Notes under the pieces: generated by a model
Databases searched by the model: none
The model's input: the letters and a program-made list of their open reading frames with translations, nothing else
What the model was told of the DNA's origin: nothing
Assembly (NCBI GenBank): GCA_964457775.1
Contig: CAYWEW010000004.1
Coordinates: 24,705-88,704 of the forward strand
DNA: 64,000 nucleotides
Reading direction: 5' to 3'
Source of the DNA: an uncultured Candidatus Saccharibacteria bacterium
GTDB lineage: Bacteria; Patescibacteriota; Minisyncoccia; Phycocordibacterales; UBA5272
Part shown: positions 450 to 54,821 of the stretch, in pieces
Layout: the number at the start of each line of letters is the position of its first letter
How positions within the stretch are numbered: position 1 is the first letter of the stretch
Position numbers and translations under genes: made by a program

Positions 450-1181
450 TTATTTTTTTAAATTAGACAGGTATAGAAGAGTGGCATCTAGTGCATCTAA
501 ATTTCCAGTATCAAGCCAAACAGAATATGGCACCCATGTGAAATCTGCCCCTCTTTTAATCATTTCATCTAAAATTGGCACATCTGAAATTTGAGAATCG
601 TTTGGATTATTTTTATAAATTTGTTCCAAGATTTCCCAATACATTTTATAATCAAAAATACCATCTAATCCTATATGAATTGAATCAAATCCTAAAATAC
701 CTCTTTCGTTAAAGTGAAGTATTCTATTGTTCTTTATTGAGTGAGTTCTATAGTGTTCAAGTGGTAATTTACTAACATTCCAATCCTCAACATACCCACC
801 AATCCAATTGTGATCAGGTTCTGGAATTTTCTCAACAAAAATACCATCACATGCATGAAATATAAACGGGCACTGCAAATTGTCTTTTGCCTTTAACATA
901 GAATACCCAAGACTACTCCCCTCTCCTTCGTATTTATCAACCCAAACAAATTCAAAAATTCTTTCAGGATATTCTTTTTCAAGAAAGTCTTTAACGGATT
1001 GCCCTAAATATCCTAAAGTTATAACTATCGGGATATTAAATGGATAAGAGTCTAAAAGATAACAAATAGTTGCTCTACCATTTAACGGAACTAGTGATTT
1101 ATTTACTGTCTTTGTAATTTCTCCTAACCGTGAACCAGTCCCTGATGTTGGAATTAAAACTTTATACTTTAAACTACTCAT
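450..1181 (-). CDS. sugar-phosphate nucleotidyltransferase (NTP_transferase fold)
   Basis: N-terminal KVLIPTSGTGSRLG glycine-rich loop. Paralogous to the N-terminal domain of the 2628-4226 gene. Last gene of the minus-strand operon. Confidence 0.65.
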   Translation of the reverse strand: MSSLKYKVLIPTSGTGSRLGEITKTVNKSLVPLNGRATICYLLDSYPFNIPIVITLGYLGQSVKDFLEKEYPERIFEFVWVDKYEGEGSSLGYSMLKAKDNLQCPFIFHACDGIFVEKIPEPDHNWIGGYVEDWNVSKLPLEHYRTHSIKNNRILHFNERGILGFDSIHIGLDGIFDYKMYWEILEQIYKNNPNDSQISDVPILDEMIKRGADFTWVPYSVWLDTGNLDALDATLLYLSNLKK

Positions 1182-17863: not shown

Positions 17864-19771
17864 TTACTCCTCAATCAATTTTCTGAGAATATCTTCCGCC
17901 ACCTCCTTTCTTCTCTTTTCTTCTTCTTTATGTTTAATATTATTTTCTACTGATACCCTTTTAACTTCTTCTTGTTTCTTGTTTATTGAATCATCACTCT
18001 TATCCTTAACCTCTTCTTTTATTGGAGAATTTTCACTCAAAGCTTTTGCCAGAGCATCTTTAAGAGACATGGCTGGCTTATCATCAAATTGTGTTGTTTG
18101 TGGAGTTGTTTTTTGTGCAAATGTTTTTGAGTTATTTATCTGATTGTTGGTGTGAGTATGCTTTGAATATGAATTATGAGTGGATTTGTCTACATTTATT
18201 TTAACTTCTGTTTGTATAATTGGTTGAGTAACTTCAATTGCTACTGGCTTTATTTCTTGTTTAATAACCTCAACCACTTCTGGTTTCTTTTCAATTTCTA
18301 TCTTTTTTACATCATCATATCTTTTTAAATTATTATCAAATCTCTTAAGATTATCACTACGTTTTGGTGGGTAAGGATTATCGTTTTTATATTCATTAAC
18401 TTTCAAAAACTTTCCATCAGGCAAAGCCGTTTCTACTTTTGGTTTATCAACTTTTGGAACTGGTTTGTAGAATTCTGCAACCTCATCTTCAACCATAAAC
18501 TTTGGTTTTGCGTATGTTGTACGTGAAAAATTTATCACCGCTTGCATGTGCGACTGAACAGGTTTTTGTATTGGTGGAAGTGTCTTAGCAGAAAATGGTT
18601 TTGACCCCTGTCCATCAATCATAAGTCGTATATAAATTTGATAAGCTGACAGATTAACAAAATCATCTAGTATAAAAAATGGCGCGAATTCTTTCTCAAA
18701 TACTTCAGCGTCTGTAGCTCCAACACGAAATGTAATCATTGTTCCCACGTTTCCAAACACCGCAGCCTTAACATCATCGGTCATCTGCTCTATATATTGA
18801 TGTGCGACAGTAAGTGCAAGTTTATATTTTCTTGCCTCTGAAAGAATACTTGCGAATGATTCATTGGCAAAGTTTTGAAATTCATCCACATAAAAATAGC
18901 ACGGAGGTAATTTTTCTTGAGTAGTTAAATCGACATCTGCTCGTGACATTGCAGCCAAGTATATTTTAGTTATCAAAAGTGACCCGAGTAAATTAGCGTT
19001 CCCTTCTCCCACTTTTCCTTTAGAAAGATTCACAATAAAAATCTTCTTCTCGTCCATCATTTTACGTGCATCAAATGATGTCTTCTTTTGTCCAATAATA
19101 TTTCTAATTAATGGATTAGAAATAAACTGACCGATTTTATTTTGAATTGATGGTGCAAGTTCTTGTGCCGTTTTATCCGTATAATTTGCATATTCATTTA
19201 CCCAAAAATCTTTTACGGTTGGGTCAGTTACATTAGAAACAATAAATTTTCGATACTCTTTATCAAACAACATTCTGTTTACACCAAGAAGAGTTTGTCC
19301 GTCATTCTCCAGGAGGGCAAGGATAATATTATTAAGCACATACTCCATACGAGCAGAAAATGTTCCTTTACCGTCACCATCAGTAAATATTTTCTTAAAT
19401 GCTGACATCATACCGTTTGCAAGAAGATATCTTTTTTCTGCTGGAACTTTTTCTAACATATTAAGACCCATCGGAAACTCACCATCAAATGGCGCAAAAT
19501 AAACAACATCCTTAATACGTGACTCTGGAATATGGTCGAGCAACTTTTCAGCAAGTGAACCATGTGGATCAATAACGAAAACACCTTCACCGTTATTTAT
19601 ATCTTGTATAACTAAGTTTTCAATAAGAACAGATTTACCCATACCGGACTTACCAATGATATAAGAATGCTTTGTTCTATCTATTTCTTTGATACCAAAT
19701 GTAAGCTGTTTATTACGATAATCAATTTTGCCTATATAGGTAACTTTTTGTGATGGACGATCGTCTGACAT
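17864..19771 (-). CDS. DUF87/HerA-FtsK superfamily P-loop ATPase, TraG/VirD4-like, with Lys/Glu-rich low-complexity C-terminus
   Basis: HSYIIGKSGMGKSVLI..GVFVIDPHGS Walker A context. Conserved LTVAHQY...FGNVGTMITFRVG. Confidence 0.5.
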   Translation of the reverse strand: MSDDRPSQKVTYIGKIDYRNKQLTFGIKEIDRTKHSYIIGKSGMGKSVLIENLVIQDINNGEGVFVIDPHGSLAEKLLDHIPESRIKDVVYFAPFDGEFPMGLNMLEKVPAEKRYLLANGMMSAFKKIFTDGDGKGTFSARMEYVLNNIILALLENDGQTLLGVNRMLFDKEYRKFIVSNVTDPTVKDFWVNEYANYTDKTAQELAPSIQNKIGQFISNPLIRNIIGQKKTSFDARKMMDEKKIFIVNLSKGKVGEGNANLLGSLLITKIYLAAMSRADVDLTTQEKLPPCYFYVDEFQNFANESFASILSEARKYKLALTVAHQYIEQMTDDVKAAVFGNVGTMITFRVGATDAEVFEKEFAPFFILDDFVNLSAYQIYIRLMIDGQGSKPFSAKTLPPIQKPVQSHMQAVINFSRTTYAKPKFMVEDEVAEFYKPVPKVDKPKVETALPDGKFLKVNEYKNDNPYPPKRSDNLKRFDNNLKRYDDVKKIEIEKKPEVVEVIKQEIKPVAIEVTQPIIQTEVKINVDKSTHNSYSKHTHTNNQINNSKTFAQKTTPQTTQFDDKPAMSLKDALAKALSENSPIKEEVKDKSDDSINKKQEEVKRVSVENNIKHKEEEKRRKEVAEDILRKLIEE

Positions 19772-25770: not shown

Positions 25771-25800
25771 AAAACCCGAATCAATTAATTCGGGCTTTGT
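25771..25800 (-). terminator. Rho-independent terminator between the tRNA locus and murB
   Basis: CCCGAAT-caattaa-ATTCGGG flanked by A- and T-runs (works on either strand). Confidence 0.5.
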
Positions 25801-25806
25801 TATTTT

Positions 25807-25903
25807 GTGCGCGGTCCTGGATTCGCCTCTCGCATTGCTATGCTCGAAACCTACGTCCTCTCTTCGAGGACTGCGGCCCGCGGTTCGAATCCAGGACCGC
25901 ATT
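25807..25903 (-). repeat. tRNA-trailing structured element, degenerate copy A
   Basis: 15-bp terminal inverted repeat GCGGTCCTGGATTCG...CGAATCCAGGACCGC (acceptor-like plus T-stem-like). Internal GTCCTC-tcttc-GAGGAC hairpin. Not a canonical tRNA. Confidence 0.4.
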
Positions 25904-25940: not shown

Positions 25941-26068
25941 TTTTATTGCTGTGCGCGAACCAAGATTCGGTCACCTCGTCTCGTTTCAAGATTACTTGAA
26001 ACAGGAGACTCCTCGACCCCTATTCGAATCTTGATGGAAATGACGCAGGTCATTTCCTGTTCGCGCAC
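25941..26068 (-). repeat. tRNA-trailing structured element, copy B (downstream of tRNA-Ile)
   Basis: The acceptor strands GCGCGAA/TTCGCGC are identical to tRNA-Ile. H1 hairpin GGAAATGAC-CTGC-GTCATTTCC. P1 CAAGATTCG/CGAATCTTG encloses AATAGGGGTCGAGGAG and a TTTCAAG-taat-CTTGAAA hairpin. Confidence 0.55.
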
Positions 26069-26113
26069 AGAATACAAAAAGCTAAGGATACTTCCTTAGC
26101 TTTTTGTATTCTG

Positions 26114-26186
26114 TGCGCGAACCAAGATTCGAACTTGGGACCGCTCGAGTATCAGTCGAGTGCTCTACCAGCTGAGCTATTCGCGC
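26114..26186 (-). tRNA. tRNA-Ile (anticodon GAT)
   Basis: Manual fold. Acceptor GCGCGAA/TTCGCGC, D-arm GCTC-AGCTGGTA-GAGC, anticodon loop CTGATAC, T-arm CCAAG-TTCGAAT-CTTGG, discriminator A. Confidence 0.8.
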
Positions 26187-37770: not shown

Positions 37771-38697
37771 CTATTTGTCTGTCTTAACCTCCATCATCCT
37801 ACCGTCAGTCACAAAAGAAATACTTCCTCTGTCTATTGTGCTTATAATTTCTTTTGTGTATTTTTGTAATCTGTCAATCGTCTCTACATTCGGATGTCCG
37901 TACTTATTATTTTTTCCTGCACTCACGACTGTGTACTCGGGTTTGATGTAACTTAGCAACTGCTCTCCACTTGATGTCTTACTTCCATGATGCCCTACTT
38001 TGTACACTGTCACATTTTTTGGAAGCGCACCACTATCGAATAATTTATTTTCTTTTGCTGTTGGTAAGTCTCCAGTTAACAAAAAACTTTGTTCTCCGTA
38101 TGTGATGACCATACTCACTGATGCATCATTCGTATCATTTTTCTTTTCTTGATAATTTTTTTGTGGGTACAAAATTTGTGCAGTTACTCCATCATGAAAA
38201 TCAATCACATCTCCTGTACGTGCGACATACATATCTGCATGTTCGACATCGATATGTTTATCTAACTCACCAAAAACTTTTGTGTCACTATGTACTGGTG
38301 ATTCTATAATTGTATGTGCTTTATATTTTTCTAAAACTGGAATTAATCCAGTCACATGATCTGCATCCGGATGAGTTGCGACTATCACATCTATCTCACG
38401 ATCAAAGTATGACATTTCAGAATCTAGTCTAGATAAAATTATATTCGTCGGACCACCATCTATAAGCATTTGTTTTCCACTTGGAGTTTGTACAAAAATT
38501 GCATCACCTTGTCCAACATCGAGAAAAGAAACTTTGAGTTTTTGTGGTGTGATTAATTTGTATATCACAATTGCTGATATCAAAATAATAAATAATGAAA
38601 TGAAAACAAAAGTAACTTTTCCATAATTATGAATAAAATCTTTTGTGCTTTTTCTCACATTTTCTCTCCACTCATTCATATGATAATAGTAACACAA
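37771..38697 (-). CDS. ComEC C-terminal metallo-beta-lactamase domain protein (split comEC, part 2)
   Basis: FLDVGQGDAIFVQTPSGKQMLIDGG..., HPDADHVTGL. Confidence 0.6.
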   Translation of the reverse strand: MCYYYHMNEWRENVRKSTKDFIHNYGKVTFVFISLFIILISAIVIYKLITPQKLKVSFLDVGQGDAIFVQTPSGKQMLIDGGPTNIILSRLDSEMSYFDREIDVIVATHPDADHVTGLIPVLEKYKAHTIIESPVHSDTKVFGELDKHIDVEHADMYVARTGDVIDFHDGVTAQILYPQKNYQEKKNDTNDASVSMVITYGEQSFLLTGDLPTAKENKLFDSGALPKNVTVYKVGHHGSKTSSGEQLLSYIKPEYTVVSAGKNNKYGHPNVETIDRLQKYTKEIISTIDRGSISFVTDGRMMEVKTDK

Positions 38698-39368: not shown

Positions 39369-40925
39369 TCAGTAGGAAATTATGTCGGTGAGATTTCCAT
39401 TCTCTCTTGTTGCACGCGTTTCATTATTATATTTTCTTAAAATTAATATCATTAGAATAGAAACGAAAAGATAAATAAAACACATCGTTTTAAATGAAAC
39501 GTTAAGCATAACTGTCGAGTAAGGAAATAATTCTATTGTTCTTGCTACCCATATCATGACCCCAATTAGTACTGAATCTATGTATCCAATAAGTAGTGAT
39601 AATGTGTGTGAAATGTATGAAAAAAATACAACCAAGAATGAGAACAACATCGCAATTGGTACAAATGGAACGACAAGCACATTCGCTATGAGGGCGTACA
39701 CTGACACTGTCCCGAAGGTGTACATAACATAAGGCAATGTCGCGAAGTAGGCAGACAAGGTAGTAATGAAGAGTTCTCTTAAAGAGAGTGGCGACACGTA
39801 AGAGAAATATTTTTGAAATAACAATGTAAGTGGTTCACTCATATACACCAATCCAACCGTTGCGAGAAACGAGAGATGAAGTGATACATCGTGCATGAGC
39901 GCATATGGTTCATACATCACAATTATAAATAACGAAATTATCAAAGCTTGCTTCGCTACATATTGACGACCGACCAACATTGCGAGTAACGCGATGAACG
40001 CCATCAGAGTTGCACGTATAACACTCGGACTACCCCCTACCATAATTACAAAAAGTACTACTGAAATTGAAGCGAACACAATACGCAAAGTAAGTGGAAG
40101 AAACGCGAGTGCAAACAAAATAGAAGCAATTACAATTACTATATTGAAACCAGAAAGAACCACAATGTGAGATAGTCCTGCAGAACGAAATGTCTGAGTT
40201 AATTCTTTGGACATTGATGATGCTCCGAACAACATCCCGCTTGCAAGTGATGACGCGGGTGATGAAACATAAGTATCAATTCTTGTAGTTAAATTTTCTT
40301 TCAGACGACCCAACACATCTCTTATAGCATGAGCCTCACTATCAATCCCCTCCACACGGGGGTACATCATTTCACTTCCAATATTTTTGGTCAGTAAGTA
40401 TGAAGCGTAATCAAATCCTTTTTCTTTGATCTCGTTATGAGAATAAATAATTTTTGGAACAGTAACTTTTCCAGAAAGTTTGAGCGTCTCGCCTATTTCA
40501 TATTTTGGATAAAGCGGTGTGCGAACTTCTACCGCAAGTGCTTCAACATCTTTGACAATCGGCTCTACTGAAAAAATTTGATACTCATTTTTTGTCTCTG
40601 GTGATGTAACAATTACAGCATTGAATGTACAACTACTCTCACATACAAAATTATTTTTCTCCTCAACTAATTGTACACGGATGATTCCGATAAATAGTCC
40701 GAGACAAAAAAGTGAAGTGACGAGCGGAAAAGGAAAATGATGAAGGATGTCGAAGATGTCCTTCATCATTTTTCTTTTCCGCTCCCAACCATACAACCCC
40801 AACTGTATCACCCCGAGCACCACTGCTAGCACCCCCACCTCACTTCCATACACAGACATCTCTCCAATCACAATTCCTAACAATGCTCCGACTACGAATA
40901 TAACTGTCTTTGCATGTGTTGTCAT
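39369..40925 (-). CDS. ComEC/Rec2 N-terminal membrane 'Competence' domain protein (split comEC, part 1)
   Basis: SVIRATLMAFIALLAMLVGR...LHLSFLATVGL competence-domain signature. Confidence 0.6.
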   Translation of the reverse strand: MTTHAKTVIFVVGALLGIVIGEMSVYGSEVGVLAVVLGVIQLGLYGWERKRKMMKDIFDILHHFPFPLVTSLFCLGLFIGIIRVQLVEEKNNFVCESSCTFNAVIVTSPETKNEYQIFSVEPIVKDVEALAVEVRTPLYPKYEIGETLKLSGKVTVPKIIYSHNEIKEKGFDYASYLLTKNIGSEMMYPRVEGIDSEAHAIRDVLGRLKENLTTRIDTYVSSPASSLASGMLFGASSMSKELTQTFRSAGLSHIVVLSGFNIVIVIASILFALAFLPLTLRIVFASISVVLFVIMVGGSPSVIRATLMAFIALLAMLVGRQYVAKQALIISLFIIVMYEPYALMHDVSLHLSFLATVGLVYMSEPLTLLFQKYFSYVSPLSLRELFITTLSAYFATLPYVMYTFGTVSVYALIANVLVVPFVPIAMLFSFLVVFFSYISHTLSLLIGYIDSVLIGVMIWVARTIELFPYSTVMLNVSFKTMCFIYLFVSILMILILRKYNNETRATRENGNLTDIISY

Positions 40926-44252: not shown

Positions 44253-46028
44253 TTAAATAACCTTAAACCCTATTTCTTTTAAATATTCAAAAGTAGAATT
44301 ATAAAAATCAGGATTTCGTGTTGGATCATTTTTATCACCATCAGGTATAACAATTACCATTCCTTGTCTTGCTCTAGTTAAAAGAACTCTGTAAGCATTT
44401 TTAAGATAGTTTTGTCGTTCTAACTTTCTGATATGATTCCAACGACTACCAACAAATGACCAATGTTCCCAACCATTATTGGTATATCTAAAATCTGCAT
44501 CCCAAATTACACAAGACCAATCTAGTTCAAGACCTTGAACATGAAACTCTGTTGCAACATCTTCGAGGTAATAAGATGAACGTACATCATCCTTTCCATC
44601 TAAAAACCAATGAATTGGATCAACTGGAGATTTAACATCTATAGCATATGGTTTTAATCTTTCTGCTTGAGAAGAAACCATAATTCCGTAACGTTCCGAA
44701 CCCCTCGCCTGCTCTTTTAACCATTGTTTCGCTTTGGAAACATCTCGAGTAATAACCATTGGGTATTTATTTTTTATATTATTTAAAGTATCTTGTGCGT
44801 CATTTAATTTAATATCAAGCAATTGTTTAAAAAGTAGAGAGACGTGCTCAGCACGAAATGAACGCATAGAAACATCAAGATGTAACTCATCTCTAGTTAC
44901 AACTAGAGGGTTATATTTTAATTCATCCAATACTTTTCCAGCTCCATACTCACTATCAGTTAGTCTAGAAGAAATATAAATATGCCAATCTGGAAAAGAT
45001 CTATTCATGGACTCAATCCATTCACTAATACCAGCTTCTCCGGTATTAATCTCTTGACCCCCACCAACAAGACAAACAACAACGGCCCAATCTTGATGTC
45101 TATCTAAACACGATATAAGAAACTCGGGTTCTGATTGTTTAAAATTAGGCATACCCTTTTTCCTATGCATAAAATTTACTGTTTGTTGTAAATCCCATGC
45201 ACGTTGTGATTCATCAAATAATACAACGTGCTCAATTGGTGGTTTTTCAAAATCAACCAAACATTCATCACGAAAATTATGAACGTTCTGAATAAACATT
45301 TTAACATTACTCATTACTTCTCCTTTTTTAATTTTATGACCTCGTTCCTTTTCATGTCTAACCTTATCTCGTGTTAGTGCTTCACGTAAGATTGCAACAA
45401 GTGGTCCATTACCAGAAAGAAAAACACTATACAAATCATTATCTTTATCTATATGTTTAGTTGCAATATTTAGTCCGACTAATGTTTTACCAGCACCTGG
45501 TACACCAGTAACAAAACAAATTGATTTATGTGATTTATTTTTAGATAAATTTATTATTTCTGAAACTGTTTCTGATGTTTTAGTTAAATTAACTGCGCCA
45601 GCATCACTACGAGATATGTTAACCACCGAATGACCATTGTACAAAGACATCGCCGCTTCAATGATTGTTGGTGTAGGGCAATACCTACCCATCTCCCATT
45701 GTTTTATATCAATATCTTTATCCTCAACAAATATTAAAATATTATTTATTGCTTGATTAAGTAATTCACTGTTACACATCACAGGAATAAGCAGCTTATC
45801 GTTTTGTAATGTAGTAGAAACAACAGTAACAGCACTCTTTGATTTAGTAGCTATTAGTACTGGAGCAATATAATGTTCATGACTTGACTCATGAAAGTTT
45901 TTTAAATCTAAAGCATAATCCCAAACTTGATCTATAGATGATGATAAAAATTCTTTATCGCCAACTTTAAATTCAAGTACAAATACTACTGGTCCAATAA
46001 GTAATACAACATCAATTCTTTTTGCCAT
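44253..46028 (-). CDS. DUF2075-type protein: PD-(D/E)xK-like N-terminus plus SF1-helicase-like ATPase
   Basis: IDVVLL...VLEFK (D...ExK), [34 protein letters not shown]. Possible frameshift at the 5' end (see findings). Confidence 0.55.
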
Positions 46029-49706: not shown

Positions 49707-51212
49707 CTACTTAACTTTGAATTGCTTACGTATTTCTTTAATTTGTTCTTTGTTTTTCTCTTCCATCTCTTCTTTTCCTGCTTTGCCTAGCAATCTGAGC
49801 TCAATATCTGATAATTTAATCAATTCTAGTGCGCGTTTATCTAGATATTCTTCAGTATTTTTCTCTGGATTATCAAGCACTTCGTCGAATAATGCATGTA
49901 AAACAAAGCCAATCTTCGGCCCAGCCGTTTCTTGTGTAACGTCCATGATTCGTTTCCCGTCAGTTTTTAGCATTTTTAGTGTAACTGGATCCTGTATCGC
50001 TTGTTCTACCATTGATTCATACATTCTCAGTCTATATGGCTCTTCTTTTGGCCTTCCAGTGCCCACTCTGTCGCAAATGCGTAGATTGATCAAATCCCAT
50101 ATATTATCCTTGCCTACGTTCGTAATTAGGCGTCTAACAGCTGATATAGTTATCTGCTCAGTGTCGGAAAAGAACATATGCCAACGCACGAACATGGACA
50201 CTCTGTCTGTCATCTCTTTTGGAAACTTTAGTCGCTCCAATATTTCACGTGAAACACGCCCACCAACAACATCGTGGCCATAAAATGTATAATCTCCTTT
50301 CTCTTTTGAGAAACGGCGTGTTTCTGGCTTGGAAATGTCGTGTAACACTGCTGACAAACGTATATGTAACGGCCACTTCTTATCAGCGGCATGCTGTAAT
50401 GTGCGAAGATTGTGCTCCCAAACATCGAAACTGTGAGCCTGATTCTGCATAACCCCTATTCCACGCTCTAATTCTGGCACCACATATTTCAAAATATCCA
50501 CGTCTTTCATGATAACAATACCCCTCATCGGGAAATCAGTCATCAAAAGCTTGATAAATTCATCTTTTATCCTTTCACATGAAACGTTTCGCAAAAGATG
50601 GGCGTTTCTCTCGATACTTTCACGTGTAACGCTATCAATATCAAAGTCCAATTGGCTCATAAGTCTAATTCCTCTCATAAGTCGTAAAGCATCTTCGTTG
50701 AAACGCACATCTGGATTGCCGACCGCTCTTATGATTTTCTTTTGTATATCTAACTGTCCTTCGAAAGGATCGATTATTTCTCCAGTCATTGGATTGTAGG
50801 CAATGGCGTTACACGTGAAATCTCGACGCTTCAAATCATCTTCTATGTCCTTGCTCCACTTCACTTCATCTGGATGTCTGTTGTCAGAATATGTGGTTTC
50901 TAAACGATATGGTGTAACTTCAACAATCTTAACCGTTTCATCACTGCAAGCGGGTAAATTCTCCTCCCCACAAGTGACAACCCCTACGGTGCCATAAGTA
51001 TTTTCATAAAAAGTCTTTGGAAATAAGGCGATTATTTCCTCTGGGGTGGCGTTTGTTGTAATATCAAAATCTTTTGGTTTATTCCCCATAATTAAATCAC
51101 GAACACAGCCACCAACAAGAAACGCTTCGAATGAGGCGTTTTGAAGCACAGCAAGTACCATTGTTACTTCTTTTGGTATTCCTGTCCCTATTTTTTGCTG
51201 TATTTGTGTCAT
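49707..51212 (-). CDS. cca: CCA-adding tRNA nucleotidyltransferase with HD domain
   Basis: GGCVRDLIMG..DFDITT polymerase-beta head. HD motif HSFDVWEH...LLHDISK. Confidence 0.8.
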   Translation of the reverse strand: MTQIQQKIGTGIPKEVTMVLAVLQNASFEAFLVGGCVRDLIMGNKPKDFDITTNATPEEIIALFPKTFYENTYGTVGVVTCGEENLPACSDETVKIVEVTPYRLETTYSDNRHPDEVKWSKDIEDDLKRRDFTCNAIAYNPMTGEIIDPFEGQLDIQKKIIRAVGNPDVRFNEDALRLMRGIRLMSQLDFDIDSVTRESIERNAHLLRNVSCERIKDEFIKLLMTDFPMRGIVIMKDVDILKYVVPELERGIGVMQNQAHSFDVWEHNLRTLQHAADKKWPLHIRLSAVLHDISKPETRRFSKEKGDYTFYGHDVVGGRVSREILERLKFPKEMTDRVSMFVRWHMFFSDTEQITISAVRRLITNVGKDNIWDLINLRICDRVGTGRPKEEPYRLRMYESMVEQAIQDPVTLKMLKTDGKRIMDVTQETAGPKIGFVLHALFDEVLDNPEKNTEEYLDKRALELIKLSDIELRLLGKAGKEEMEEKNKEQIKEIRKQFKVK

Positions 51213-51242
51213 AGATTGTGTTAATATACCCTTTGTAAATAA

Positions 51243-51314
51243 GCTTCCGTAGTGAAATGGATATCACAACGGTCTTCGGAACCGTCGTTCTGGGTTCGAA
51301 TCCTAGCGGAAGCA
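51243..51314 (+). tRNA. tRNA-Arg (anticodon TCG)
   Basis: Manual fold. Acceptor GCTTCCG/CGGAAGC, anticodon loop CTTCGGA, T-arm CTGGG-TTCGAAT-CCTAG. Confidence 0.75.
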
Positions 51315-51520
51315 CAAAAATGTGAGTGAAACGAGTATTTTTGTGCTTCCGCAGAAAGTGACCTGCGTCACTTTCGTTAGGATTCGAATGAAAAACCGGT
51401 ACACGAGATTCGCGGAGCGAATACTTGTCGGTTTTTCCGGGGTAGCGAAACAATATTTTTATCGAGTCCGTAGGACGAGCTGAAAAATATATGTTTGGTG
51501 ACCGAGTCCTAGCAAATCCC
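51315..51520 (+). repeat. tRNA-trailing structured element, copy C (after tRNA-Arg)
   Basis: Inverted repeat GGAAGCACAAAAAT...TATTTTTGTGCTTCC regenerates the tRNA 3' end. H1 GAAAGTGAC-CTGC-GTCACTTTC. GGATTCGAATGAAAAACCGGTACAC. CTTGTCGGTTTTTCCGGGGTAGCGA. GGTGACCGAGTCC. Confidence 0.5.
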
Positions 51521-51964
51521 TACCCCTCCCAAATTGTACCACCCTCCCTCATTTTATTTAGTGACTACTCCACTTTCTTCGTTCCCTGTTTTTATAAATT
51601 GCTGTGACTGCAATTACGGCCATTACTCCAAGTAGAATATAAATTATTCTTAATGATGAAGTTTTAATGTATGTTTTTCCTGGTCCACAAGCAGAACTAG
51701 GTGTTTTGTTTGTATGAATAAGTGTGTACTCATCTATGTTTGTGTAAACTGGACCAAGTAAATTAGTCTTAATTATCAAGTCTTTTGCTTCAAACTTCAT
51801 TGGTGGTAATAATGATGGGGAGCATGCACTAGCAACGTTTATTTGAAGAAGTATTAAGGACAATATAATTAATGGTGATATTACTTTATGGGACATGGTT
51901 ATTTATAAATAATAACACATAATACGCTTTGTTGTAGAACGTTTTACGGAGAATCGGTCACCAC

Positions 51965-52171
51965 TACGGCTCGCTTTAAAAAGCTTTGCTTTTCTCATCT
52001 CGCACGTAGTCGCGACCCCGGGAAAAACCGACAAGCAATTCATTCAAAAAATTAATGACCCCTATTTTTTGATTGAATTCTTGTGTACCGGTTTTTCGTT
52101 CGATTCTCCACAGACATGTCGCAGGTCATGTCTTTACACCACACAAAATACTCACTACGTTCCTATTTTAG
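51965..52171 (-). repeat. tRNA-trailing structured element, copy G (after tRNA-Gly-GCC)
   Basis: Collinear with copy C. H1 AGACATGAC-CTGC-GACATGTCT. GGAGAATCGAACGAAAAACCGGTACAC. AATAGGGGTC. CTTGTCGGTTTTTCCCGGGGTCGCGAC. Confidence 0.5.
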
Positions 52172-52242
52172 TGCGGCGTAGGAGAATCGAACTCCTGTCT
52201 CAACCTTGGCAAGGTCGTGTTCTACCACTAAACCAACACCGC
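52172..52242 (-). tRNA. tRNA-Gly (anticodon GCC)
   Basis: Manual fold. Acceptor GCGGTGT/ACGCCGC, anticodon loop TTGCCAA, T-arm AGGAG-TTCGATT-CTCCT. Confidence 0.75.
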
Positions 52243-52550
52243 ATTGAGAGCAATTGTAACACGACAAAAGCATAATGAAAAGATGTGATTCTAAGAAAGC
52301 GTTATATACTAAACACTAGGCGTTTCTTGTGAAAAGGTCATGTTGACAACATATAGAAATCTGGGGATAAACCTGTGAGTAGTGGGTATAACGGACATAC
52401 AAATTACTCTAGGTCAAATCAATTATGCTATGGCCTTTATACCAAAAAAGACTTGTTAAATATAGGTTTTTTAAGGTCAGAGACTTTTAATTAGACAAAT
52501 AAAATAAGGACATCTGTTTCACGTGAAACGAATCAAATATATAGTAAATT

Positions 52551-52940
52551 ATGGCAGAACATAATGAAATTGGAAAAATTGGAGAGAATATAACAAAAAC
52601 GTTTCTTATGAAACACGGTTTTTCTGTTGTTGATATAAACTATAGGACCAAATATGGGGAAATTGACATTATAGCTAAAAAAGACAACGTAGTTAGATTT
52701 GTTGAGGTTAAGAGTGTGAAAGTCAGAGACTTTGAGAGTATTAGTAACTTGGCAGTGAAGCCAGAGGACAATTTAACAAATGACAAATGGTCAAAACTTG
52801 TTGTTTCATGCGAAACGTATTTGAAACATAAAAATATTTCACATGAAACTAAATGGCAGATTGATCTTGCTTGTGTTTATATTAATACTGAAATAAGGGA
52901 GGGGAAGGTGGTGTTGATGGAGAATGTGAGTAGGGGGTAA
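52551..52940 (+). CDS. yraN: YraN/UPF0102 family endonuclease-like protein
   Basis: GENITKTFLMKHGFSVVDINYRTKYGEIDIIAKKDNVVRFVEVKS. Confidence 0.6.
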   Translation: MAEHNEIGKIGENITKTFLMKHGFSVVDINYRTKYGEIDIIAKKDNVVRFVEVKSVKVRDFESISNLAVKPEDNLTNDKWSKLVVSCETYLKHKNISHETKWQIDLACVYINTEIREGKVVLMENVSRG

Positions 52941-53018
52941 TGAAAGTTTGATTGATTACTATAACTACATGCATATTTCAGAATATATGCTAGAATGTTC
53001 AATACGTTTACTTAATAT

Positions 53019-53091
53019 CGGAATGTGGTGTAACGGCTAACATCCCTGGTTTGGGACCAGGTGACTCCGGGTTCGAATCCCGGCATTCCGA
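53019..53091 (+). tRNA. tRNA-Pro (anticodon TGG)
   Basis: Manual fold. Acceptor CGGAATG/CATTCCG, anticodon loop TTTGGGA, T-arm CCGGG-TTCGAAT-CCCGG. Confidence 0.75.
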
Positions 53092-53245
53092 CAAATTGTA
53101 AAATCACACTTGTAATCAAGTGTGATTTTACTTTGGAGGATGCAGTGAGTGAACTGCTTCACTCACGTCGGCGATTCGAATAGGGGTCGCGAGAGCTATA
53201 TTTCGAGCACGCGAGAAATAGACCTTGTGACCGAATCCCGGCATG
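53092..53245 (+). repeat. tRNA-trailing structured element, copy D (after tRNA-Pro)
   Basis: Hairpin AAAATCACACTTG-taatc-AAGTGTGATTTT. H1 GTGAGTGAA-CTGC-TTCACTCAC. P1 GATTCG/CGAATC encloses AATAGGGGTCG. The 3' end CCGAATCCCGGCAT copies the tRNA-Pro T-stem/acceptor. Confidence 0.5.
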
Positions 53246-53266
53246 ACTATATGCTAAACTTGATTA

Positions 53267-53497
53267 ATGAATACACCACAAACAGGGGAGATATGGCAAC
53301 ATTATAAAACGAAAGGGGAATATGAAATTATTGGTCTTGGTCAACTACAAACAAAAGTAGAGTCTCTTGATATGAAAGAGTGTGTTATTTATAAATCACC
53401 AGCTGGCACACTGTGGGCACGACCACTGGCTGATTTTGTAGAAGATATTAAGAATGAAGAAGGGGAGATGACACCAAGATTTAAAAAAGTAAGATAA
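53267..53497 (+). CDS. DUF1653-like small protein
   Basis: GEIWQHYKTKGEYEIIG...LWARPLADF pattern. Confidence 0.45.
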   Translation: MNTPQTGEIWQHYKTKGEYEIIGLGQLQTKVESLDMKECVIYKSPAGTLWARPLADFVEDIKNEEGEMTPRFKKVR

Positions 53498-53512
53498 AAG
53501 AAAAAGACGTCG

Positions 53513-54076
53513 TTAGACGTCTTTTGCAAGAAGGTATTTCAAGCAATCTTCACAATATGGGGATTCTCTTTTGTATCTGGAAGAGGCTCTTTTAGTCCAT
53601 ATCGAATCAGACTCATCTTCACTCATTACACAATTGTTTAGGCAGTGACCTGTGCCGTTAGTACTAATACTTAGTCGGGCGCGATGCTTATTTATTAAAC
53701 CCATTGAATGACCCAGCTCGTGCAGGATTAAGTCCCAAACTTTTGCAGACCATTTCATGGAGTTGTTTCTAGGAATATCTTTTACGCCTATCACACACCT
53801 GTCGGGTAATGATAGGCCAAAAACTCTTTTTCTTCTCCACGTTAGATTCGCATTAACAATATAAAAGGTAAAACCTTTACAAAACATATGTACTTTTCTT
53901 TGAAAAATTACTGATGTTGGTACTGTTTCCCTTTCAGAAAGAATGGAGAGATCTTCATTTGACTCAACTGAGTACGTTACGTCAGTGAATATTTTTCTCA
54001 AATCTCTGACAACTCTGCGAATAACCTTGTTTGTGCCGTGTGGGACGAATGGATCTAAAACGAAACGAATGTACAT
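53513..54076 (-). CDS. archaemetzincin-like zinc metalloprotease (M54-type)
   Basis: HELGHSMGLINKH plus GHCLNNCVM and CEDC cysteine cluster. Confidence 0.55.
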   Translation of the reverse strand: MYIRFVLDPFVPHGTNKVIRRVVRDLRKIFTDVTYSVESNEDLSILSERETVPTSVIFQRKVHMFCKGFTFYIVNANLTWRRKRVFGLSLPDRCVIGVKDIPRNNSMKWSAKVWDLILHELGHSMGLINKHRARLSISTNGTGHCLNNCVMSEDESDSIWTKRASSRYKRESPYCEDCLKYLLAKDV

Positions 54077-54174
54077 GATACCCTCCCTTTATTGTTTCTA
54101 TTAATATACTATCAGAATTTTATACTAATCAAAACTAGAAAAGTCTAATCAAATATGATAGGATATATTTCACA

Positions 54175-54245
54175 AGCGGTGTTGGTTTAGTGGTAGAATG
54201 CCTGCCTTCCAAGCAGGAGACAAGAGTTCGATTCTCTTACGCCGC
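54175..54245 (+). tRNA. tRNA-Gly (anticodon TCC)
   Basis: Manual fold. Acceptor GCGGTGT/ACGCCGC, anticodon loop CTTCCAA, T-arm AAGAG-TTCGATT-CTCTT. Confidence 0.75.
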
Positions 54246-54442
54246 ACAGAAATATAAAATCCTGAAACAAATTGTTTCAGGATTTTATATTTCTGTGCGG
54301 CGTAAGCAAGACAACTGCTTGTCTTGCATAGAGAATCGAATAGGGGTCGAGGAGCCATTTGTTTCTTGTAATCAAGAAACTGGCGAGGTGACCGATTCTC
54401 TTGAAGACTTATTTGTCGGTTTTTCCCGAGGTCGCGACTAGG
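54246..54442 (+). repeat. tRNA-trailing structured element, copy E (after tRNA-Gly-TCC)
   Basis: 30-bp inverted repeat regenerating the tRNA 3' end. H1 GCAAGACAA-CTGC-TTGTCTTGC. P1 AGAGAATCG/CGATTCTCT encloses AATAGGGGTCGAGGAG and TTTCTTG-taat-CAAGAAA. TTTGTCGGTTTTTCCCGAGGTCGCGAC. Confidence 0.55.
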
Positions 54443-54575
54443 AGTGTTTTGTGAATAACAAAGTTATGAAACAAAACACTCAAAGTAATGACCGATTCTC
54501 TTACAATCGTTTGTCCAATTCTGTATTTCTTTATATAATACCCAAAGAAGTTCAACTACCCCCAAGGAGAAAATC

Positions 54576-54821
54576 ATGCCGTGCGAATGCAAGTGCCAAT
54601 GTTCTTGTCATCATAAGGATATTCCTTTTTCGGAGATGTCGAAAGCAGATCAAGCAAAACTGAAGAGGGAAGCAGGTTACGGTTTATCAAGAAAGCTTTT
54701 GGGTAAAGAGAGTCTGGCTCATCGTGAAAAACTAGACCACTCTCTATCATTAGATGAATCAAGAAGAAGACAAACACAGCGAGCTTTTGAAGCCTTTAAC
54801 GATAGTTTCGGCAAAGGATAA
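54576..54821 (+). CDS. small protein with Cys-rich N-terminus (MPCECKCQCSCHH)
   Basis: AAGGAGAAAATC RBS. Terminator at 54836-54868. Confidence 0.4.
   Translation: MPCECKCQCSCHHKDIPFSEMSKADQAKLKREAGYGLSRKLLGKESLAHREKLDHSLSLDESRRRQTQRAFEAFNDSFGKG

Follow-up and report, generated by a model that had tools for sequence, protein, structure and literature searches.

tRNA-programmed structured elements follow tRNA and tmRNA genes in Saccharibacteria and other bacteria of the Candidate Phyla Radiation

The maturation of bacterial tRNAs is held to be well understood, with RNase P acting at the 5′ end of the precursor and RNase Z or exonucleases, together with the CCA enzyme, at its 3′ end. We know of no described system in which each tRNA gene is accompanied by a conserved, structured element just downstream that bears the 3′ half of the tRNA twice, once as complement and once as copy. 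Here we analyse a stretch of 64,000 nt from an uncultured Candidatus Saccharibacteria bacterium (assembly GCA_964457775.1, contig CAYWEW010000004.1, positions 24,705 to 88,704 of the forward strand; hereafter, the window), for which an initial annotation had noticed long perfect inverted repeats incorporating the 3′ end of tRNA genes. The inverted repeat is the junction of the tRNA gene with an uncatalogued, tRNA-programmed structured 3′-trailer element, designated here the shadow, which is widespread in Saccharibacteria and other bacteria of the Candidate Phyla Radiation (CPR).

In single features the shadow recalls intrinsic terminators, attachment (att) repeats, folded single-stranded DNA (ssDNA) recombination sites, and RNAs that read or mimic tRNAs, but it does not appear to belong to any of these groups. 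As in an intrinsic terminator, the commoner type of locus (type 1) has, right after the tRNA, a GC-rich inner hairpin set between complementary A- and U-runs; here, however, the helix extends 9–12 bp into the mature tRNA and on to a three-way junction, a conserved element of 110–330 nt follows, and a second type of locus has no GC hairpin. With the tRNA att sites of integrase-borne islands, including cis-mobilizable islands that lack an integrase, the shadow shares a direct repeat of the stretch between the T-loop and the tRNA 3′ end, the targeting of transfer-messenger RNA (tmRNA) genes and the presence of islands or extra genes next to the units. Nevertheless, in our loci the repeat usually brackets only a non-coding, structurally conserved unit of ca. 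155 nt, an antisense copy is present, no integrase was found, and the elements are vertically conserved at each locus.

Integron attC sites and the CTXφ attP(+) site also carry inverted, target-like copies that pair within one strand to mimic a duplex site, and show a structure kept over sequence, conserved unpaired bases and strand-specific folding. Here there is no IntI or XerCD context, the arms are customised to each tRNA, and there are a G·U-rich rod and a conserved core sequence; of the marks of a true integron attC site (IntI, attI/Pc, a cassette array, the R''/L''-L'/R' arrangement and GTTRRRY), no integrase was found in the window or recurrently near related loci, and the consensus has no R-box. 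The systems IS200/IS605 and REP/RAYT are characterised by short subterminal palindromes and a fixed tetranucleotide target, in contrast to arms that differ with the tRNA.

Among RNAs, T-boxes and RNase P external guide sequences share with the shadow a sequence-specific complementarity to the acceptor end of a tRNA, and tmRNA, YrlA and mascRNA share an acceptor-like plus T-stem-like coaxial helix, a possible substrate of RNase P, RNase Z or the CCA enzyme. The shadow, in contrast, is situated 3′ of the tRNA gene, pairs with 22 or more nucleotides including the T-loop and the trailer rather than with NCCA, lacks both a specifier loop and a T-loop/D-loop elbow, and matches nothing in Rfam. It is distinct from the T-box riboswitch, a 5′-UTR leader with a Stem I specifier, NCCA pairing and a terminator/antiterminator, and from tRNA-like RNAs, which have a free 3′ end and a T-loop, because it pairs T-loop positions 56–60 and N73–A75. 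It also differs from the bridge RNA or seekRNA of IS110/IS1111 elements in that no DEDD/Tnp gene was found in the window or recurrently near related loci and the guide is a contiguous complement of 12+12 nt instead of internal loops. An E-value search of Rfam over positions 51000–54800 gave no match to self-cleaving ribozymes (hammerhead, HDV, twister, pistol, hatchet, hairpin). No description of the element was found in Rfam or in the full-text literature searched, whose coverage is incomplete; according to a transcriptome preprint on TM7x, this organism has no validated small RNAs (10.1101/2022.03.25.485537).

Layout and fold of the element

Five tRNA genes were identified in the window by ARAGORN and Rfam, none with an encoded CCA. 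Those for tRNA-Ile, tRNA-Gly(TCC) and tRNA-Arg are followed by perfect inverted repeats whose tRNA-proximal arm consists of the last 9–12 nt of the mature tRNA plus the first trailer bases. The arms are somewhat longer than annotated: 35 instead of 30 bp for Gly-TCC (54236–54270 and 54272–54306), 16 instead of 14 bp for Arg (51306–51321 and 51337–51352) and 30 instead of 28 bp, with a loop of 4 nt, for Ile (26059–26088 and 26093–26122), the annotated coordinates and description being otherwise right; the right arm of the Ile repeat, on the plus strand, takes in the last ca. 10 nt of tRNA-Ile. A perfect hairpin of 15 bp (53098–53131) follows tRNA-Pro, and tRNA-Gly-GCC has an imperfect equivalent of the repeat with G·U-type pairs. 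Perfect hairpins of at least 14 bp with a loop of at most 20 nt occur nine times in the window, four of them, including the two longest, directly 3′ of tRNAs, whereas block-shuffled sequences contained none in 19 of 20 cases and one in the other. The perfect repeats incorporating tRNA 3′ ends are therefore real and far above expectation. They are also, as annotated, much longer than a terminator requires, and their distal arm runs straight into a conserved hairpin of the shadow, H1.

All five tRNA genes carry a connector hairpin and a shadow of 110–330 nt with a common layout. Read in the orientation of the tRNA, the connector is followed by an anti-acceptor that complements tRNA positions 65–76, a conserved A, H1 (a 9-bp hairpin with a CUGC loop) and G-U. 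Then comes an anti-T, which complements the 3′ strand of the T-stem (61–64) and the whole T-loop and ends in TCGAA, position 65 being paired with the anti-acceptor. The core is formed by a bulge, AAUA(C)GG, and a rod, GGUCG...UGACC, carrying a variable distal hairpin, and the 3′ part by CGA and a sense copy of the 3′ part of the T-loop and the 3′ strand of the T-stem, which sometimes extends to the acceptor 3′ strand and, in tRNA-Ile, also to the discriminator and “CAG”. Anti-acceptor and anti-T thus form a guide complementary to the T-loop, T-stem 3′ strand, acceptor 3′ strand, discriminator and first trailer bases of its own tRNA, interrupted by H1 opposite tRNA positions 64/65. From this layout it follows that the annotated inverted repeat is the 3′ strand of the tRNA paired with the 5′ guide of the element.

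A search with a gapped core pattern retrieved 69 metagenome loci (numbered here with the prefix L), of which five GC-rich ones were chance matches. The 43 non-redundant tRNA-linked copies, which represent at least 15 isotypes with an identical layout, are the base set for the pairing, connector and folding counts that follow.

The flanks of the element are programmed by the adjacent tRNA. The anti-acceptor pairs with its own tRNA at 10.67 of 12 positions, compared to 6.34±0.27 when shadows were re-dealt among tRNAs (maximum 7.5 in 2000 trials), and the anti-T at 5.79 of 6 positions (re-dealt, 4.03±0.13). The anti-T tracks the sequence of the T-loop, with TTCGACC matched by GGTCGAA, and this extends to copies outside the search pattern, in which TTCAA-type T-loops are accompanied by TTGAA...GACCAA in place of TCGAA...GACCGA. 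Its register is the true complement of tRNA positions 54–65 and not a copy of the tRNA 5′ strands, which rules out a tRNA pseudogene, direct or inverted; such an origin does not fit the order of the arms either. Inside the duplex, C74 is encoded in all 43 tRNA genes and A75 in 35.

The connectors are of two types. Type 1, present in 35 of the 43 loci, has its GC hairpin between an A-run and a complementary U-run, and by eye looks like a canonical bidirectional intrinsic terminator; in the Ile locus, for instance, a GC-rich stem-loop (GCTAAGGA/TCCTTAGC) is followed by the U-run TTTTTGTATT. A consensus terminator scanner did not flag these connectors because the stem runs on through the U-run. 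In type 2 (8/43; Arg-TCG, Gly, Cys, Thr and Ser-GCT) there is no GC hairpin and the U-run is within the stem, the acceptor 3′ strand plus A-run pairing with the U-run plus anti-acceptor around a loop that contains a GYGAARC mini-hairpin. Since no terminator precedes the guide in type-2 loci, it must be co-transcribed there with the tRNA. The annotated role of the repeats as terminators is hence plausible for the 35 loci with a terminator-like connector and does not extend to the other eight. The type-2 loops (51322–51336, 52150–52170; L123, L163, L164, L169, L178) covary as GCGAAGC, GUGAAAC and GUGAAGC, and GCRAAGC is found again at the tips of the rod variants B and C, beside a T-loop-like UUCGA; as DNA, d(GCGAAGC) forms an unusually stable hairpin.

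In alignment A1, part of whose core invariance is imposed by the search pattern, pairing reaches 98.9% in H1, where all nine pairs vary on both sides, 89% in the P2 helix between anti-T and sense copy, and 90% in the rod. For covariation the score was 0.482, compared to 0.171±0.010 for shuffled alignments (0/500 reached it) and at most 0.125 for slid controls. G·U pairs outnumber A·C mismatches by 6:0 in H1 and by 70:0 in the rod, where 42 are fixed by the pattern and 28:0 remain outside it, which indicates a fold on the tRNA-sense strand, either as RNA or as sense ssDNA; the core thus folds on this strand. Independently of the pattern, the CUGC loop is conserved in 36, the A...G flank in 34 and the G-U junction in 31 of the 43 copies, and 39 copies that only a covariance model (CM) detected still have the bulge and the rod, with natural variants such as AAUACGGGGUCG and GUGGCCGA. 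Isolated shadows fold far better than shuffled sequence, and H1 and the rod appear to be under structural selection. By eye, the junction does not fit a K-turn, a hammerhead or an H/ACA pocket, and no target base is left unpaired at it. Rfam searches, both at the gathering threshold and at E≤5, returned only the true tRNAs and meaningless matches to miRNA hairpins, and no family fits the shadow.

Distribution and evolution of the units

A CM trained on 42 copies identified in the window exactly the five tRNA-linked elements, and 106–114 copies in the CPR loci. Control loci came from a scan with an insufficiently specific 15-mer, in which chance matches made up most of the 120 loci. When the CM was run on 100 such essentially random bacterial and archaeal loci, every strong match (≥35 bits) fell in six CPR loci, labelled Saccharibacteria, Paceibacterota and Nomurabacteria, and among the non-CPR loci only two GC-rich ones gave weak matches, of ca. 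22 bits. In the CPR loci, 57 of 99 tRNAs are followed within 110 nt by an anti-acceptor (≤2 mismatches), and 54 of these 57 have also an anti-T at a fixed offset of 36 nt; among the 11 tRNAs of the control loci, one had an anti-acceptor and none an additional anti-T. A tmRNA gene in L167 (Rfam; 485–880, minus strand; downstream region to 274), the only one found, is likewise followed by a connector and a shadow, whose guide fits the 3′ end of the tmRNA (GTGGAGGTGGG / CGGGATCGAA) and whose H1 loop is not CUGC. The shadows are therefore a conserved, CPR-wide family of structured elements 3′ of tRNA and tmRNA genes. This architecture, conserved across CPR lineages, contradicts the possibility raised at annotation that the repeat is present only in this strain.

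The window belongs to a cellular genome, with genes for MurB, RecJ, YraN, AhpC, ComEC, an HD-type CCA enzyme and a nucleotide-sugar cluster, and its tRNA cluster Arg/Gly/Pro/Gly is syntenic with that of a Candidatus Saccharibacteria metagenome-assembled genome (L068), the CCA enzymes being 77% identical. No copies were found in viral contigs (IMG/VR) or in phage records, and we accordingly rejected a phage element. Clustering of the open reading frames (ORFs) around the 69 loci produced only housekeeping families.

Four related genomes sharing the tRNA cluster were compared. Gene tRNA-Gly-TCC is identical in the four, and the type-1 palindromes behind it all differ, each being internally perfect; H1 and the type-2 connectors are orthologous across the genomes and show compensatory changes. 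Rod variants have been swapped between orthologous loci, and at least five discrete variants recur over isotypes and genomes. In the trailer parts we counted 468 Watson-Crick pairs, 4 G·U pairs, 4 mismatches and no A·C. The pattern points to DNA-level conversion as what maintains the identity of the arms, through either quasi-palindrome templating or recombination. Related Saccharibacteria are naturally transformable (PMC10633639), and the organism of the window encodes ComEC.

The units are bounded by direct copies of the tRNA 3′ end, of 5–40 nt. Direct repeats reach at least 10 nt beyond CGA in 13 of the 43 loci, and that of tRNA-Ile (21 nt) includes trailer bases. Units occur in tandem or chained in L126, L180, L181, L139 and L186; L125 contains, at 721–967, two shadows head-to-head that share one palindrome, with no tRNA; and comparison of L156 with L166 reveals a recombinant joint within the conserved core, the 5′ part of one shadow being joined in L166 to the 3′ copy of a tRNA-Trp shadow. 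The elements are thus used as repeats in genome rearrangements. An ORF for a membrane protein (171 aa) is situated between two units behind tRNA-Lys in L170 (4300–5500, minus strand). In contig Ga0172379_10000163 (L132/L173), a unit of 175 nt, comprising the 3′ end of tRNA-Gln, the hairpin, the shadow and the 3′ copy, occurs twice, with 2 mismatches and ca. 6 kb apart; between both copies there are genes for a HerA-type ATPase, an unknown protein of 382 aa and an M23 peptidase. The arrangement resembles an island with a whole unit at either edge, and no integrase, transposase or reverse transcriptase was seen in the sequence examined, which has a 1-kb gap. In L184 and L188 the place of the tRNA is taken by a recurring segment upstream of the shadow (CACGAGAAGGGTCG...GGACCTTRTGGGG...TTTCGGGGCAC), at the end of which stands a partial 3′ end of tRNA-Lys.

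Possible functions of the element

Constrained folding of tRNA, connector and shadow together favoured pairing of the acceptor 3′ strand with the guide over any acceptor-stem structure in 40 of the 43 loci, with a mean difference of −12.6 kcal/mol. In the unconstrained minimum free energy structure of the Ile locus, the 3′ half of the tRNA is zipped to the guide and its 5′ half is paired with the distal copy. The guide is thus predicted to outcompete the acceptor stem thermodynamically and, once transcribed, to behave as an intramolecular “anti-tRNA”. Tentatively, and with clear reservations, we favour reading the element as a co-transcribed, tRNA-programmed RNA module of the 3′ trailer that captures or presents the 3′ half of the pre-tRNA. 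Most transcripts would end at the inner hairpin and U-run where these exist, and those passing the connector, which would be all of them in type-2 loci, would contain the guide. The guide would then invade the acceptor stem by strand displacement starting at the adjacent hairpin, and the 3′ half of the pre-tRNA would become zipped into a long perfect duplex beside the fixed three-way junction at H1, which lies at a constant 8–9 bp from the N73/C74 processing site. Duplex and junction could serve as a recognition platform for a trans factor, possibly RNase P with the acceptor-like helix as its substrate, or an endonuclease specific for double strands or junctions. Such a factor would separate and process the read-through precursor, or dispose of it; the 3′ sense copy would finally re-pair with the guide and free the 3′ half of the tRNA. 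RNase III was also considered as the specific nuclease: the geometry of type 1 is plausible for it, that of type 2 places the site only 5–6 bp from the loop, and it is kept as a candidate.

Of the alternatives proposed at annotation, an RNA processing signal remains the most plausible class. The conservation of H1 and of the type-2 connector, with compensatory changes, between genomes whose CCA enzymes have diverged to 77% identity supports a role as RNA. The gene for an HD-domain, CCA-adding/repair-type enzyme (49707–51212, minus strand) lies immediately upstream of tRNA-Arg, and its presence together with the invariant C74 would fit an unusual route of 3′-end formation, although this is only suggestive. 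The only MBL-fold (metallo-β-lactamase) protein among the window ORFs scanned with Pfam and NCBIfam is the C-terminus of ComEC, not RNase Z. According to a statement in PMC7479834 that cites earlier work, cytidines directly after the discriminator suppress bacterial RNase Z. A wider proposal, which we regard as doubtful, is a genome-wide RNA-programmed system of CPR bacteria in which the guide of each tRNA or tmRNA gene, split by H1 into anti-acceptor and anti-T, would steer a conserved trans factor to the tRNA 3′ half. This factor would mature the 3′ ends of pre-tRNAs or control their quality, with N73-C74 left to the HD-type CCA enzyme, or else it would act as a platform for RNA-guided recombination at tRNA genes.

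Several observations weigh against a trailer RNA module. The terminator-like hairpin and U-run ahead of the guide in the type-1 loci argue that the guide is rarely transcribed there. We had considered that the shadow ends in a terminator of its own, an idea rejected because a U-run after the element is not enriched (6/43, compared to a background of 19%). A wobble bias in the tRNA:guide pairing, which would have been proof of RNA pairing, is absent (13 G·U vs. 14 A·C). In 16 loci the arms reach 28–30 bp and are 100% Watson-Crick, which suits copying or conversion of DNA better than selection for RNA pairing. The anti-acceptor has decayed where the core is intact (tRNA-Pro of the window, L186, L143 and L149), tRNA-Arg of L068 has no shadow, and the Gly-TCC genes of L068 and L163 retain only the hairpin and the anti-acceptor; since some orthologous tRNAs lack the element, it is not essential for maturation. 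Whole units flanking inserted genes suggest a role in recombination, and the contribution of the search pattern to the invariance of the core has also to be discounted.

The main alternative, which we consider rather unlikely, is a DNA-level recombination or integration module. It could be a landing or attachment site, or else a miniature, non-autonomous integrative element, and its target would be the part of tRNA and tmRNA genes from the T-loop to the 3′ end. It would act as folded sense-strand ssDNA or as long homology, the sense copy being a duplicated att-like target and the antisense copy re-creating a double-stranded target on folding, as in CTXφ attP(+) or integron attC. The 3′ ends of tRNA and tmRNA genes are classical integrase targets. 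This explanation accounts better than an RNA module for the direct repeats of the tRNA 3′ end that bound the unit, for the islands, for the perfect Watson-Crick arms without wobble bias and for the presence/absence polymorphism among related loci; the tandem and chained units, the genes sandwiched between units (L170, and the HerA-type cargo of L132/L173), the recombinant joints inside the core (L156 vs. L166), the head-to-head pair of L125 and the shuffling of core variants among isotypes and orthologous loci are also in its favour. Nevertheless, there is no integrase, transposase or reverse transcriptase in the window or recurrent near the 69 loci, nor are there copies in viral contigs. Connector type and H1 are orthologous at each tRNA locus, pointing to vertical inheritance and not to repeated insertion; the orientation is always that of tRNA transcription; and the G·U pairs of the rod, including the 28 outside the pattern-fixed bases against no A·C, are typical of RNA and weak in DNA hairpins. 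A mobile origin is also hard to model, because an element specific for one tRNA cannot reach other tRNAs without killing them, and the window contains no further distant copies of tRNA 3′ ends, which also led us to reject a cassette organization.

The two following readings each explain only parts of the data. It is quite improbable that the shadow is an independent tRNA-like small RNA, produced by read-through or from its own start and excised by the tRNA machinery, that acts in trans as an isoacceptor-specific minihelix mimic or decoy of the acceptor and T arms, or as an antisense RNA to the tRNA or its gene. Such RNAs have precedents in tmRNA, YrlA and mascRNA. Where the acceptor copy exists, P1 and P2 form an acceptor-like plus T-stem-like coaxial helix with the sequence of the tRNA itself, with G+1 opposite C72 and a U at −1; the element of L186 is followed by its own tRNA-trailer copy and a terminator, as in a gene; and the conserved loops suggest a protein partner. 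Yet the acceptor copy is absent in ca. 70% of loci, P1 spans N73-C74-A75 and leaves no free NCCA-like end, there is no T-loop/D-loop elbow and the Rfam models of the tRNA clan, tmRNA and Y RNA do not match, and the register of the antisense part is that of a true complement of positions 54–65 rather than of a copy of the 5′ strands.

Less probable again is that the element has no dedicated function, being a bidirectional terminator perfected and extended into the tRNA by quasi-palindrome templating or gene conversion, with the sense copies as scars of past integrations at tRNA genes. Templated mutagenesis of quasi-palindromes would explain arms that are perfect, variable among genomes and unbiased for wobble pairs, such as the four different palindromes behind the identical tRNA-Gly-TCC and the near-absence of G·U pairs and mismatches in the trailers, and the Gly-TCC loci of L068 and L163 keep hairpin and anti-acceptor in the absence of the core. 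It is, however, a process and not an element, and leaves H1, the core and the sense copy unexplained: it accounts neither for the position of H1 at 64/65 in every locus, nor for the complementarity that continues past H1 into T-stem and T-loop, the covarying conserved bulge, rod and loops, or the maintenance of more than 100 copies in streamlined genomes across CPR classes.

Finally, a strict IS200/IS605, REP/RAYT or integron attC site, as proposed at annotation, would share with the shadow strand-specific hairpin folding and conserved unpaired bases, but is very remote, because no Y1/HUH transposase (RAYT included) or IntI was found among the larger window ORFs (Pfam, NCBIfam) or the families recurring near the 69 loci, a direct copy of the target is present, which IS200/IS605 and REP elements lack, there is neither a GTAG-type REP head nor an attC R-box, and the elements follow the orientation of the tRNA and not the direction of replication. 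More broadly, the same searches of the larger window ORFs returned no transposase, integrase, integron integrase or other recombinase and no reverse transcriptase.

Copies in the window, their neighbourhood and significance

The features of the window are collected in Table 1. The connector of tRNA-Ile has its inner hairpin at 26080–26088/26093–26101 and the anti-acceptor at 26059–26070, and its shadow comprises, in order, anti-acceptor, H1, anti-T, the core TCGAAT-AGGGGTCG...GGTGACCGA (25967–26027) and the sense copy. The shadows of Arg and Gly-GCC have a longer core through an inserted module, GAAAAACCGG...CGGTTTTTCC. That of Arg, whose connector loop is GUGAGUGAAACGAGU and has no GC inner hairpin, contains H1 at 51354–51375, the anti-T at 51376–51388, GGTGACCGA at 51497–51505 and the T-stem copy at 51506–51513. 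In Gly-GCC the anti-acceptor UGUGGUGUA meets the tRNA via G·U pairs, and GGTGACCGA is at 51954–51962. The anti-acceptor of Pro is partly decayed, and the Gly-TCC shadow carries an appended module that ends with a second T-stem copy (GACCGATTCTCTTAC, 54490–54504).

Table 1. Coordinates of tRNA genes, connectors, shadows and associated features in the window
Feature	Position	Strand	Remarks
tRNA-Ile(GAT)	26113..26186	-	ARAGORN; Rfam 73.1 bits; no encoded CCA, 3′ end A73-C74-A75
Ile connector palindrome	26059..26122	-	Last ca. 10 nt of tRNA, A-run, inner hairpin, U-run, anti-acceptor
Ile H1 hairpin	26036..26057	-	9-bp stem, CUGC loop, conserved A...G-U flanks
Ile shadow, short type	25955..26073	-	CM R1 98.2 bits; fold −63.9 kcal/mol, z = −9.3
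Exact direct repeat of tRNA-Ile 3′ end, 21 nt (CGAATCTTGGTTCGCGCACAG)	25949..25969	-	Closes Ile shadow
Orphan shadow-like element, core type X, without H1	25806..25900	-	Fold z = −7.0
Terminator-like hairpin	25775..25794	-	Closes tRNA-Ile/shadow unit, just ahead of murB
tRNA-Arg(TCG)	51243..51315	+	ARAGORN, Rfam
Arg type-2 connector	51306..51352	+	Acceptor 3′ strand + A-run vs. U-run + anti-acceptor
Arg shadow, long type	51338..51513	+	CM 48.9 bits (5′ part); motif matches
Gly-GCC type-2 connector and long-type shadow	51946..52170	-	CM 35.7 bits
tRNA-Gly(GCC)	52171..52242	-	ARAGORN, Rfam
tRNA-Pro(TGG)	53019..53092	+	ARAGORN, Rfam
Pro connector hairpin (53098–53131) and short-type shadow	53093..53246	+	CM 87.1 bits
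tRNA-Gly(TCC)	54176..54247	+	ARAGORN, Rfam
Gly-TCC perfect palindrome, 35 bp	54236..54306	+	Contains last 12 nt of tRNA-Gly-TCC
Gly-TCC shadow	54290..54504	+	CM 92.9 bits; short-type unit 54290–54407

The orphan element follows the Ile shadow, has the core TCGAACCG...GTTTCGA...GAGAGGCGA and matches a tRNA 3′ end (..ATCCAGGACCGCGCA) that is absent from the window, suggesting a lost or relocated tRNA, or an element that has outlived its tRNA. Its core type X was also found after tRNA-Lys in L139.

Right behind the shadows, and co-oriented with them, there are ORFs for a DUF1653 protein (53267–53497), a Cys-rich protein of 81 aa (54576–54821) and a protein of 112 aa with no Pfam match (51558–51896); the space behind the shadows is variable, its syntenic counterparts in L068 being far shorter. 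Elsewhere, the window contains genes for a TrwB-like type IV coupling protein (17864–19771) and a Schlafen-group-3-like helicase (44253–46028). ComEC is encoded in two parts (37771–38697 and 39369–40925): one ORF has the Competence domain, another the MBL domain, and a DedA/VTT gene lies between the two.

Saccharibacteria can now be cultured and transformed (PMC10633639), which makes the element easy to test. It would occupy ca. 1% of a streamlined genome, by a rough estimate, not a computed value, from 130–330 nt for each of 30–45 tRNAs in 0.8–1 Mb. Should the element function as RNA, pre-tRNA handling would have its first cis-encoded, tRNA-programmed guide, and the least-understood bacterial radiation a large new family of RNAs; should the element function as DNA, it would be a new type of folded recombination site that explains the entry of islands at the tRNA loci of CPR bacteria.

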